This document shows, piece after piece, positions 869 through 3,140 of a DNA stretch of 17,976 nt (position 1 is its first letter; each line of letters begins with the position of its first letter). Both the position numbers and the translations under genes were made by a program. The stretch comes from Escherichia coli. Lineage in GTDB: Bacteria > Pseudomonadota > Gammaproteobacteria > Enterobacterales > Enterobacteriaceae. The notes below the pieces were generated by a model, which saw nothing but the letters and a program-made list of their open reading frames with translations, made no database searches and was not told where the DNA came from. The stretch lies in assembly GCF_003334385.1 (NCBI RefSeq), contig NZ_QOWN01000062.1; one strand, given 5' to 3'.

Positions 869-1060
869 TTAAAGACCTGCCGGGATTTCGTTATTATCCT
901 GGTGAATAACTTTATCGACCGGGTAACAGTTACCGGGAATTTTCTGTTCGGTTGCTGCAGTCATACACTCCTGCATTGTCCTGTGAACACTGACTGCAAT
1001 ATCAACTGGCACTCCGGAAACAAGAAAAACTGTCAGAACAAGCGCAAATGCTGAATTCAT
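869..1060 (-). CDS. ydfD: YdfD-like small protein (63 aa) with hydrophobic N-terminus
   Basis: Internal Met of track ORF 869..1114 gives MNSAFALVLTVFLVSG...NNEIPAGL. Start ATG (1060-1058) overlaps the dicB stop in an ATGA arrangement. Confidence 0.75.
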   Translation of the reverse strand: MNSAFALVLTVFLVSGVPVDIAVSVHRTMQECMTAATEQKIPGNCYPVDKVIHQDNNEIPAGL

Positions 1061-1245
1061 TGTGCACATCCTTTTGGCATCAGACGTAAACGAGCCAGCA
1101 TTGAAACAATGCATATTTTATTTAATAGCTCCCGTTCTTGTTTTCTCTTGTTAATGGCATCTTCAGTAAATACAGGGTTACTGATAGTGACACCAATTTC
1201 AAAACAACCTTCAGACGTATTAACGTTTGGTAATAACGTTTTCAT
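1057..1245 (-). CDS. dicB: DicB cell-division inhibitor (62 aa)
   Basis: Internal Met of track ORF 1057..1350 gives MKTLLPNVNTSEGCFEIGVTISNPVFTEDAINKRKQERELLNKICIVSMLARLRLMPKGCAQ, which I recognise as DicB. GAGGA Shine-Dalgarno upstream of the ATG at 1245-1243. Confidence 0.9.
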   Translation of the reverse strand: MKTLLPNVNTSEGCFEIGVTISNPVFTEDAINKRKQERELLNKICIVSMLARLRLMPKGCAQ

Positions 1246-1414: not shown

Positions 1415-1472
1415 AAAAAGGGCGGCAGAGCAGTCACGGAGTAAAACTGATACCGCCAAACGTCACCAGAAA
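1415..1472 (-). ncRNA. dicF: DicF small RNA (ftsZ-targeting antisense sRNA) with its 3' hairpin and U-run
   Basis: Reverse complement of 1415-1472 reads TTTCTGGTGACGTTTGGCGGTATCAGTTTTACTCCGTGACTGCTCTGCCGCCCTTTTT, matching DicF as I recall it, ending in a GC-rich hairpin (GGCGG...CCGCC) plus T-run. Lies between the ydfC position and dicB as in the dicB operon. Confidence 0.9.
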
Positions 1473-1503: not shown

Positions 1504-1695
1504 TCACTTAAGCGTATGGTCAACCTGACAACCCGGTGTCCTCAACGGGGAAGGAATAACCCCGCCATACTTACCGCCGCGCCATTTTGCGGGTTGCCAC
1601 AACCGGAAGCGCACGGTCGAATTAAATTTAACGACACCGTACAGTGAGACGAACTTCGCCGTGCGCTTTCGTGTTGTGTGCCTGCTTTTAACCAC
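1504..1695 (-). CDS. Small ORF at the ydfC position (63 codons, GTG start); coding status doubtful
   Basis: Track ORF MVKSRHTTRKRTAKF... between the ydfB stop and the DicF 5' end. GC-rich and Arg/Lys-rich; could instead be structured precursor RNA for DicF. Confidence 0.2.
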   Translation of the reverse strand: MVKSRHTTRKRTAKFVSLYGVVKFNSTVRFRLWQPAKWRGGKYGGVIPSPLRTPGCQVDHTLK

Positions 1696-1731
1696 GTCAG
1701 GCGAGGTGGTATCCTTAAAATCACCACAGTT

Positions 1732-2307
1732 TTAAGGATTCATTAAGCAATGTCGCAACCACCAATAAATCCGCTTAAGAACATGAAAATTGATTACTGG
1801 TATAAAGCGCTTACAGTTGTTGGCGCTGCGTTGTTTGTCTTTAATGGAACGTCTTTTTTTGACAGATATCCCGTTGTTCCATTGGGTTTTTTGTCCTCCG
1901 GCATCTTTTTTATTGGTTTGGGGGAGTGGATTAATCACCCTCTCATAGTGAGATTTATTGGTCCTGGAGTTTGGACTCGTGGATATAATCGTTCTTCGTG
2001 CGCACTCGGTATCATCTTCGACATACTTGGTTGTTTCCTGATTGTTACAGGAGTCGTCAAGTTCTTCTGATGTAAAACCGCAAATGGGGCACGTAACGGG
2101 AATTTTGAAAAGCGTTTCTCCGGGTTCCAGAACAAAATTTTCTGCGGTCTGATTTTGCTTCTCATATTTGTGCTCCGCGTCATTGTGAGAGCACATTCTT
2201 ATTCTGAGTGCCTGTTTAAACTCACTGAAGCTGAGAGCTTCTTCGCCTTCGGCAAGGCCTTCGAAGTATTCTTCGTAAGCCTTTTCCATGATTGTGTCGA
2301 AATCCAT
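1732..2307 (-). CDS. ydfB: YdfB-like ORF; the first 42 codons match the short YdfB I remember, but here the frame stays open for 191 codons
   Basis: ATG at 2307-2305 with AGGTGAG Shine-Dalgarno, 1 nt after the ydfA stop. Begins MDFDTIMEKAYEEYFEGLAEGEEALSFSEFKQALRIRMCSHN, then continues DAEHKYEKQ...CPICGF. The C-terminal part is low-complexity and may be a shadow of the antisense ORF at 1750..2070. Confidence 0.4.
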   Translation of the reverse strand: MDFDTIMEKAYEEYFEGLAEGEEALSFSEFKQALRIRMCSHNDAEHKYEKQNQTAENFVLEPGETLFKIPVTCPICGFTSEELDDSCNNQETTKYVEDDTECARRTIISTSPNSRTNKSHYERVINPLPQTNKKDAGGQKTQWNNGISVKKRRSIKDKQRSANNCKRFIPVINFHVLKRIYWWLRHCLMNP

Positions 2308-2308
2308 A

Positions 2309-2464
2309 TCACTCACCTGAGTTTCTTTCCAGCCAGCGACGGGCACCATTTTCGGTTTTAAACGTTTTGCTTTTGGTATACGTCATCGCGGTGAACGTAC
2401 CGTCCTGGTTGGGGAACACGCCACATACCAGAGATTCGCTGTTGCCAAGATCGATAGTATCCAT
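2309..2464 (-). CDS. ydfA: YdfA (51 aa)
   Basis: Internal Met of track ORF 2309..2518 gives MDTIDLGNSESLVCGVFPNQDGTFTAMTYTKSKTFKTENGARRWLERNSGE. GAGGT Shine-Dalgarno upstream of the ATG at 2464-2462. Confidence 0.85.
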   Translation of the reverse strand: MDTIDLGNSESLVCGVFPNQDGTFTAMTYTKSKTFKTENGARRWLERNSGE

Positions 2465-2655: not shown

Positions 2656-3063
2656 TTATTGATGCTTGTTGCGTTTGCGAGCCTCTAATAGCTCGGTGAA
2701 CAGGCGATTAAAATTCTCAACGCGGGCGCGGAGTTCGCTGAGTTGTGCTTGTTGCTCTGATTTAGGAAGTGCGCGATACAAACGCAGCATCTCTAACTCA
2801 TCTTCCGATAAGTCTAAGGCACTATCGAGTGAAACAGGGGGAGCTGGTGTTTTGTCCTCGTCGCCAAACAGTATCCAAGTTGGTGAACATTGCAATACCT
2901 CGGCGAGGCGATGCAAATTTTGCCCGCGCGGGGCTGTATGGTCACTTTCCCATAATGAAATTGATGAGCCAGATACGCCAGCAGCTTTGCTTAAACCGTT
3001 TTGACTTAAGCCTACCTGCTTACGTCTTTCTCTAATGCGTTGACCTAAAGTTTTCTCGTTCAT
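2656..3063 (-). CDS. dicA: DicA-like HTH (XRE-family) repressor, 135 aa
   Basis: Internal Met of track ORF 2656..3114 gives MNEKTLGQRIRERRKQVGLSQNGLSKAAGVSGSSISLWE...VLQCSPTWILFGDEDK...; the VLQCSPTWILFGDEDK block and C-terminus match DicA as I recall it. Divergent from the Cro-like gene. Confidence 0.85.
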   Translation of the reverse strand: MNEKTLGQRIRERRKQVGLSQNGLSKAAGVSGSSISLWESDHTAPRGQNLHRLAEVLQCSPTWILFGDEDKTPAPPVSLDSALDLSEDELEMLRLYRALPKSEQQAQLSELRARVENFNRLFTELLEARKRNKHQ

Positions 3064-3140
3064 ATTTAGATATCTTAATAACCCTTGACTTGAGATTCCT
3101 TGAGTGATTAGCATTGAGAAAACTCAATATTGGAGGTGCG
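3064..3140. promoter_or_regulatory. Divergent promoter/operator region between the dicA-like and dicC-like genes
   Basis: 77-bp intergenic region with three TTGAG motifs and a perfect palindrome ATTGAGAAAACTCAAT at 3113-3128 overlapping the dicC-like ribosome-binding region. Typical repressor/Cro switch geometry. Confidence 0.45.

Follow-up and report, generated by a model that had tools for sequence, protein, structure and literature searches.

A 17,976-nucleotide stretch of an Escherichia coli genome (NCBI RefSeq assembly GCF_003334385.1, contig NZ_QOWN01000062.1; hereafter the window) spans the immunity and early region of a Qin-like lambdoid prophage, as judged from its list of open reading frames (ORFs) and the annotation of homologous loci. 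Within it, a plus-strand gene for a small predicted membrane protein is read through over its whole length by a 191-codon ORF on the minus strand that begins as the phage gene ydfB. Our best reading of this locus, to which we give a probability of about 0.62, is that a mobile module coding on both strands (1690-2206) recombined into the dicB operon of the prophage and replaced the 3' end of ydfB together with ydfC; the lysogen would produce the membrane protein, and the module's own minus-strand ORF, here called the cover ORF, would be translated as part of the lytic early operon. The evidence that carries this reading is a specific one: the three plus-strand codons that would place a stop in the cover frame are absent from the plus genes of 14 diverged lineages. 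The whole analysis is computational.

Two opposed frames on common triplets

The elements of the overlap are as follows.

1750-2070, plus strand: plus ORF, the membrane-protein gene, 106 residues, convergent with the early-left (dicB) operon
1732-2307, minus strand: minus ORF, 191 codons and a stop, consisting of ydfB codons 1-34 fused in frame to the module's own cover ORF
2071-2196, minus strand: native N-terminal domain of the cover ORF, type A (defined below), MCSHNDAEHKYEKQNQTAENFVLEPGETLFKIPVTCPICGFT, not overlapping the plus gene and ending exactly at its stop codon
2206-2307, minus strand: ydfB-derived part, codons 1-34, identical to K-12 YdfB at 34 of 34 residues with no similarity beyond
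1690-2206, both strands: inserted module, 517 bp, in place of 396 bp of K-12 Qin (the ydfB 3' end, ydfC and a further 120 bp)

The minus frame runs from an ATG at 2307 to a stop codon at 1732-1734; counted from an upstream ATG, the ORF spans 1732-2349 and encodes 205 residues. The plus ORF is preceded by a Shine-Dalgarno sequence (AAGGA, 1734-1738) 11 nt ahead of its ATG. Both frames had been picked out in a first-pass annotation of the sequence, which put the AAGGA at about 13 nt and listed three hydrophobic stretches that coincide with the helices predicted here. The two ORFs lie on identical triplet boundaries, so stops in the minus frame can arise only from the plus codons TTA, CTA and TCA. 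None of these is used among the 10 leucine and 6 serine codons of the plus ORF in the window, where about five would be expected from the codon usage of the flanking ORFs (P(0) ~0.001), and by this estimate the openness of the minus frame exceeds chance.

The plus protein is a member of an unnamed family whose proteins have three transmembrane helices and the motifs NPL..L.IDYWYK and GLGEWINHP; it aligns with the family over its full length and carries the invariant WY.. (within DYWYK) and G.GEWINHP. Full-length homologs of 100-112 residues and ~35-58% identity are found in Yersinia, Herminiimonas, Reinekea, Pseudomonas, Marinobacter, phages and many metagenomes, and a profile search gathered 554 clusters at 50% identity. 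Among relatives of 51-90% identity, the ratio of nonsynonymous to synonymous substitution rates (dN/dS, Nei-Gojobori) in the plus frame is 0.13-0.19. Of 34 mutations segregating in the E. coli population, 14 are synonymous in the plus frame and 9 in the minus frame, the counts giving a ratio of nonsynonymous to synonymous polymorphism (pN/pS) of ~0.45 for the plus gene.

The AlphaFold model of the plus protein has a mean predicted local distance difference test score (pLDDT) of 92.5 and a predicted template-modeling score (pTM) of 0.78. It consists of three helices (residues 17-33, 42-62 and 85-105) with a short β-hairpin (residues 66-78) between the second and the third. The positive-inside rule suggests that the conserved N-terminal motif and the hairpin face the cytoplasm. 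The protein has no match in Pfam, NCBIfam, PHROG or PADLOC; five members of the family gave no credible match to the PADLOC defence models, and fold searches returned nothing but uncharacterised relatives from AFDB50 and no match from the PDB. A type I toxin-antitoxin assignment was set aside, as the protein has 106 residues and folds confidently and no small antisense RNA was identified.

Judged from its sequence and predicted fold, the plus ORF is a bona fide, old gene under purifying selection that encodes a small membrane protein with three predicted helices. The first-pass annotation had offered a membrane-protein gene nested antisense inside the dicB operon as one of two outcomes, and this one holds: homologs extend to ~35% identity, dN/dS is ~0.15 and the three-helix model is confident. 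It had also proposed to search both translations against protein databases and to see which frame varies mainly at synonymous sites. The first of these gave full-length homologs for the plus protein and PHROG 35040 for the minus ORF, and the second singled out the plus frame (dN/dS ~0.15, as opposed to >1 in the minus frame).

Phage annotation reads the locus the other way. The minus ORF is the one called (PHROG 35040; mEp390 gp39; HannyBb), and the plus ORF never is, as would be expected if the minus ORF were the primary phage gene and the plus ORF a secondary or shadow reading. The substitution pattern just described contradicts this; moreover, the plus family is widespread without any open minus frame, and it is the plus product, not the minus product, that is modeled confidently. 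We therefore regard a primary minus ORF as very improbable. PHROG 35040, which matches the window minus ORF over residues 1-191 (E = 3.8e-141) and the cover ORFs of other lineages weakly, is a phage family of unknown function built from called ORFs; it is silent on the opposite strand, and the plus protein has no PHROG. Phage and bacterial annotation pipelines have mostly overlooked the plus family, since they give precedence to the longer antisense ORF. In phage mEp390 (locus L104, NC_019721, 2462-2917), gp39 is labelled 'similar to Bcep176 gp33', yet the two proteins are dissimilar (E = 0.53). The similarity belongs to the unannotated ORF on the opposite strand of mEp390, and the annotation is effectively on the wrong strand for its own evidence.

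Outside phages, members of the plus family stand beside a reverse transcriptase or a DUF5677 gene (L007; L004, 8001-9179) and, in Reinekea (L005/L006, 100-3900), in arrays of small unknown ORFs, all on one strand and accompanied by a ParD-like gene, which recall integron cassettes. These neighbourhoods are hints of an accessory or defence-island lifestyle. Phage mEp460_ev081 (L003, 2249-2783) carries a truncated plus gene (a 66-residue ORF) with a different minus ORF of 121 residues, an instance of the decay or replacement of the module in some relatives.

Codon exclusion and the cover frame

To compare lineages, 80 viral and 16 genomic loci were fetched by means of the plus protein alone. The 14 lineages counted share less than 85% nucleotide identity with each other, their plus proteins are down to ~38% identical, and their GC content ranges from 0.41 to 0.53. 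In all 14 both ORFs are intact and the aligned antisense frame contains no stop, whereas the other two antisense frames contain 2-16 stops (tabulated for 11 enterobacterial prophage loci). Summed over the lineages, CTA occurs in 0 of 140, TTA in 0 of 36 and TCA in 0 of 49 codons at risk, that is, in 0 of 225, against ~51 antisense stops expected from the codon usage of flanking ORFs (P(0) per lineage, 0.001-0.19). Other codons that end in A or are rare are used normally (GCA, 29/113; GGA, 44/172; ACA, 15/60; ATA, 16/159; AGA, 14; CCA likewise).

The conserved leucine and serine columns turn over among CTT, CTC, CTG and TTG and among TCT, TCC and TCG but never take TTA, CTA or TCA, which homologs without a cover ORF place at those same columns. 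The synonymous turnover implies that the stop-free frame is not inherited by inertia. Homologs outside the embedded arrangement mostly have 3-17 antisense stops, the stop-free ones being mainly of higher GC; the two groups were partly recognised after the stop counts had been seen, and the criterion independent of those counts is an abutting N-terminal domain outside the plus gene. The comparison yields a clean signal, in that all 14 diverged lineages exclude the three codons, which most relatives without the partner ORF use freely. It indicates that the openness of the overlapped minus frame is selected, through exclusion of these codons from the plus gene.

Beyond the plus stop codon, each of the 14 lineages has 30-60 further minus codons, many of them with an ATG and a Shine-Dalgarno-like sequence. 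The resulting cover ORFs encode 134-165 residues and terminate 15-69 nt upstream of the plus ATG (15 nt in the window). The cover ORF of the window has its native ATG at 2196-2194 (MCSHN...), three codons past the ydfB junction and ~125 nt beyond the plus stop. The non-overlapping N-terminal domains fall into two types, both of which end exactly at the plus stop codon. Type A carries the motif ..F.IP..CP.CGF in the window and in loci L008, L012/13 and L020-22, where it is kept despite ~50-60% nucleotide identity; type B carries FFERLE..PGSV.ID...GSVTLIGW in mEp390 gp39 and in Salmonella, Citrobacter and Enterobacter prophages. In these domains dN/dS is 0.11-0.35 (0.24 for the window against L021; values of 0.24-0.50 are given by other type A pairs), estimates made noisy by the small size of the domains (30-45 codons). 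The deepest pairs keep 40-60% of the residues at saturated dS. A further 29 clusters of type B cover ORFs from Salmonella, Citrobacter and Enterobacter all encode 147-165 residues. Stand-alone N-terminal domains were found neither in sequenced phages nor in a large protein collection.

The overlapped tail behaves differently. Synonymous-site conservation was found neither overall nor in any region: at residues conserved in the plus protein, deep pairs share codons exactly as often as codon usage predicts (ratio 1.03 overall, 1.01-1.08 per region), so the minus residues in the overlap have no detectable constraint of their own. The product of the cover ORF is predicted to be disordered apart from a C-terminal helix (pLDDT 54, pTM 0.16). 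Selection thus appears to demand an uninterrupted frame and not a particular sequence. The first-pass annotation had remarked that a polar, low-complexity tail is what the antisense of a membrane-protein gene looks like. The tail does look so and lacks residue constraint, but its openness is nevertheless the selected property.

These features of the tail might also be read as those of a shadow. The codon-aligned antisense frame is the one most often open, and the plus gene alone could be functional, the 191-codon frame being open by chance and fused to ydfB by accident. A dN/dS of at least 1 in the overlap, the lack of synonymous-site conservation, the disordered product, the stops present in some variants and the fact that RefSeq mostly leaves the minus ORF unannotated are all as this explanation would have them. 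What it leaves unexplained is the complete exclusion of TTA, CTA and TCA at 225 positions, the synonymous turnover at the same columns, purifying selection in the N-terminal region outside the overlap and the uniform length of cover ORFs in further genera. We consider a chance-open frame unlikely, and the earlier expectation that one of the two readings is probably a shadow is not supported by the comparison.

The ydfB junction and the early operon

The identity of the minus ORF with K-12 YdfB ends abruptly. K-12 YdfB (Qin, 42 residues) has the C terminus ...KQALSSSAKSNG, which the window ORF does not share; residues 1-34 alone match, and not the first 42 codons ending in RIRMCSHN, as stated in the first-pass annotation. 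DNA homology to K-12 Qin is confined to 800-1689 and 2207-2535 (blastn), with a junction at 2206/2207. Compared with the Qin gene, the first 34 codons and the position after ydfA are the same (the ATG at 2307 lies 1 nt past the ydfA stop, as befits ydfB in the dicB operon); the last eight codons and the stop are missing, the frame runs into the unrelated module and ydfC is gone.

A long, ancestral YdfB, of which the 42-residue K-12 protein would be a truncated remnant, had been the other outcome raised at the outset. The frame is indeed unbroken from the ydfB ATG, and the fused form is common in E. coli (a protein cluster of 1798 sequences). Nevertheless, the identity stops precisely at codon 34, where Qin DNA homology stops too; other phages carry the remainder free of any YdfB part, with a start codon and a ribosome-binding site of its own; and ydfC occupies the place of the module in K-12. 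Because identity and DNA homology end at the same junction and the remainder belongs to a mobile module, the long 'YdfB' is a recombinational fusion, and an ancestral long form, which the junction data reject, has next to no probability left.

The module is present in 806 of 5426 complete E. coli genomes (~15%), in 785 of them at ≥99% identity, and also occurs in other prophages with different neighbours. In most of these E. coli genomes the segment is annotated merely as a broken ydfB. In the one typical record inspected, RefSeq (Prokaryotic Genome Annotation Pipeline) gives ydfB as a 34-codon pseudogene, 'incomplete, missing C-terminus', and leaves 1732-2205 unannotated; among the other matches listed, ydfB alone is annotated beneath the matching segment. 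A few records call the minus ORF of 191 or 205 residues a hypothetical protein (WP_000344958.1; phage HannyBb).

Around the module, the leftward order from the repressor gene is ydfA, the 191-codon fused ORF, DicF, dicB and ydfD. The neighbouring features, with the candidate control elements upstream of the plus gene, are these.

869-1060, minus strand: ydfD, by annotation
1057-1245, minus strand: dicB, by annotation
1420-1471, minus strand: full-length DicF small RNA (Rfam RF00039, 76.7 bits), downstream in the dicB operon
1707-1715, plus strand: candidate extended -10 element, TGgTATCCT, inside the conserved upstream block
1711-1739, plus strand: inverted repeat ATCCTTAAAA-N9-TTTTAAGGAT, RNA hairpin with a minimum free energy of -18.9 kcal/mol (z = -4.4)
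2309-2464, minus strand: ydfA (DUF1391), which heads the early-left operon and lies upstream of the fused ORF, by annotation of a 99.6% identical RefSeq locus and PHROG 751
2656-3114, minus strand: CI/DicA-like repressor gene, by ORF and annotation of homologous loci, which fixes the position of the module within the immunity region
Past the repressor gene, plus strand: cro-, YdaT- and O-like genes, by ORF and annotation

In K-12, the dicBF operon is subject to repression by DicA (PMC10448788). The ydfC gene, which precedes dicF in K-12, is absent from the window. Between the module and dicF, in the stretch common to K-12, lies an arginine-rich ORF of 63 residues (window 1504-1727, minus strand) that matches PHROG 8854; it may reflect RNA structure instead of a coding sequence.

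Upstream of the plus gene, a block of ~45 nt (1673-1716, plus strand; GTGTGCCTG..TTTAACCAC.TCAGGC..GGTGGTATCCT) is nearly invariant among lineages whose plus proteins are 51-58% identical and is thus better kept than the coding sequence. It may hold the promoter of the plus gene. The adjoining hairpin would pair the plus Shine-Dalgarno sequence, and the minus stop codon sits inside it; it is kept in diverged lineages, with one compensatory pair. The region 1673-1749 might serve as a promoter, as an operator or in the control of translation. A simple promoter and terminator scan returned no promoter for the plus gene and no terminator between the convergent genes; lambda-type CII boxes (TTGC-N6-TTGC) had no consistent site upstream of plus genes, and no common promoter emerged when the upstream regions of the type B lineages were aligned.

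Placement in phages, proposed function and known systems

In phages with the type A domain the pair lies within the leftward early operon, the membrane gene being convergent with the repressor gene. Here the cover ORF either follows ydfA-ydfB or is, downstream of the repressor gene, the first ORF on the leftward early strand, and a distance of 230-480 nt separates it from the next gene in several of these phages. Type B phages have the cover ORF after cro (2 nt past the cro stop in the Salmonella prophage) and ahead of cII-like or replication genes, and their membrane gene points toward the repressor gene; the next operon gene is 4-23 nt away in three phages and 91 nt away in the Salmonella prophage. 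Both arrangements would place the cover ORF within the lytic early operon with the membrane gene opposing it. In three loci a phage tRNA gene (Gly-CCC or Asn-GTT) lies on the minus strand ~50-125 nt upstream of the plus ATG (L008, 5802-5875; L009, 3952-4033; L011, 3482-3563) and thus just downstream of the cover ORF in the leftward operon.

On our preferred reading, the cover ORF would be translated as part of the lytic early operon. In the lysogen, where that operon is repressed, expression of the membrane gene would start from the conserved block that lies upstream of it. The phage would accordingly make the two products in opposite states, and at induction the membrane gene would be silenced by convergent early transcription. 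The pattern of selection differs between the two frames of such a pair: the plus gene has a low dN/dS, and the cover ORF shows purifying selection in its N-terminal part and stop avoidance in the overlap, yet no residue-level constraint there. The membrane protein itself would act in superinfection exclusion or abortive infection, like other lysogen-expressed membrane proteins near the immunity region. Its position in the slot occupied elsewhere by sieB, beside the immunity region, makes the plus gene a reasonable candidate for a new prophage exclusion or defence function.

For the cover frame, two roles can be envisaged, which we weigh about equally. It could encode a lytic-phase partner or antagonist of the membrane protein, made of the N-terminal domain and a generic polar tail; this is favoured by the selection on the N-terminal domain, by its exclusive association with the module and by the comparison with Rac sieB, which has no cover ORF. 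Alternatively, ribosome transit could keep the operon mRNA translated across the insert, as favoured by the lack of residue constraint and the close spacing to neighbouring operon genes in type B phages.

Taken to its limit, the second role would make the cover ORF a ribosome track only: translation across the 0.45-kb antisense insert would prevent Rho-dependent polarity or RNase attack and allow coupling downstream, and the protein product would have no role. A disordered tail selected for stop avoidance and not for residues is what such a track would leave behind, as are the tight type B junctions with cro and with the next gene upstream of the replication genes. However, the N-terminal domains are under purifying selection and found with this module only, the next gene is far off in several type A phages, and the minus RNA is not notably rich in C over G, a hint of Rho utilisation sites that was looked for. 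Furthermore, sieB of the Rac prophage occupies the same slot without a cover ORF, having seven stops in its aligned antisense frame. Operon continuity alone therefore needs no cover, and the cover ORF is a property of the plus family and not of the slot. A track devoid of any protein function seems to us rather unlikely, less so than a chance-open frame.

Several points weigh against the two-strand module with products in opposite phage states. In the overlap, dN/dS of the minus frame is 1.3-1.7 for near pairs and 0.65 for far pairs, and the tail may have no function as a polypeptide; the evidence from outside the overlap comes from the short, noisy N-terminal domains, and the embedded and non-embedded groups were in part recognised in retrospect. 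Among 55 close relatives, six have a stop in the cover frame, one of them right after CPVC, and four have a truncated plus gene. Many copies of the module lie in cryptic prophages, and occasional loss of either ORF fits decay there. Bcep176 gp33 and a few other homologs placed antisense lack a cover ORF, as does Rac sieB. The weakest step is the function of the membrane protein, which is probably a superinfection-exclusion or abortive-infection factor by analogy of position with the sieB slot alone.

A bolder version of this reading can be put forward only tentatively, as a possibility we do not favour. Two functionally linked proteins would be encoded by the same triplets of opposite strands, a lysogen membrane protein and a lytic-operon protein, the frame of the latter kept purely by banning three codons from the former. 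They would act in mutually exclusive states, as an exclusion/escape or poison/antidote pair that recombination could never separate. If this were true, the locus would belong to the more deeply conserved, and the better supported, of the antisense overlaps between protein-coding genes in bacteria or phages.

SieB, the superinfection exclusion protein of prophage Rac that is also present in lambda and P22, is a small inner-membrane protein expressed in the lysogen. In Rac (L125, 3172-3660), sieB has the same slot and orientation as the plus gene: it lies immediately past the DUF1391 gene ydaF (a ydfA homolog), with which it converges and whose 3' end it overlaps by 4 nt, and it opposes the early-left operon beside the repressor gene; the kilS small RNA lies just beyond. 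No homology was detected between the two proteins (no Pfam match; hhalign probability against Rac SieB, 0.3%), and the plus protein was rejected as a SieB relative on these grounds. At the sieB locus of P22, Ranade and Poteete (1993) reportedly described Esc and the sas antisense RNA, by which the phage lytic program neutralises a lysogen-expressed exclusion gene from the same DNA segment. Esc is said to lie in the sieB frame and sas to be a non-coding RNA, whereas here a protein encoded by the antisense triplets would be the counterpart.

Overlapping genes in antisense form a recognised category whose status is contested (PMC9927249, PMC8850804, PMC7457138), and prokaryotic cases are disputed because those reported are young and narrowly distributed. 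Our literature search found papers on overlapping genes and work on the dicBF operon but no description of this locus. As in E. coli O157:H7 (PMC9927249, PMC5960689, PMC7103648) and the long antisense ORFs of Pseudomonas aeruginosa (PMC8850804), a single locus has two coding readings, one of which is routinely discarded by annotation. In the O157 cases the novel ORFs are taxonomically narrow and the annotated 'mother' genes more widespread (PMC9927249). Here the relation is reversed, as the embedded gene is old and widespread and the longer, covering ORF is phage-specific. Unlike the reported overlaps, the pair is kept down to ~38% protein identity and travels as one module between operons of the pL and the pR type, and its signature of selection is avoidance of stop codons without residue constraint. 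What is distinctive, then, is that the embedded gene is the old one, that the pair is conserved over deep divergence and mobile as a unit, and that the evidence for it is the exclusion of three specific codons.

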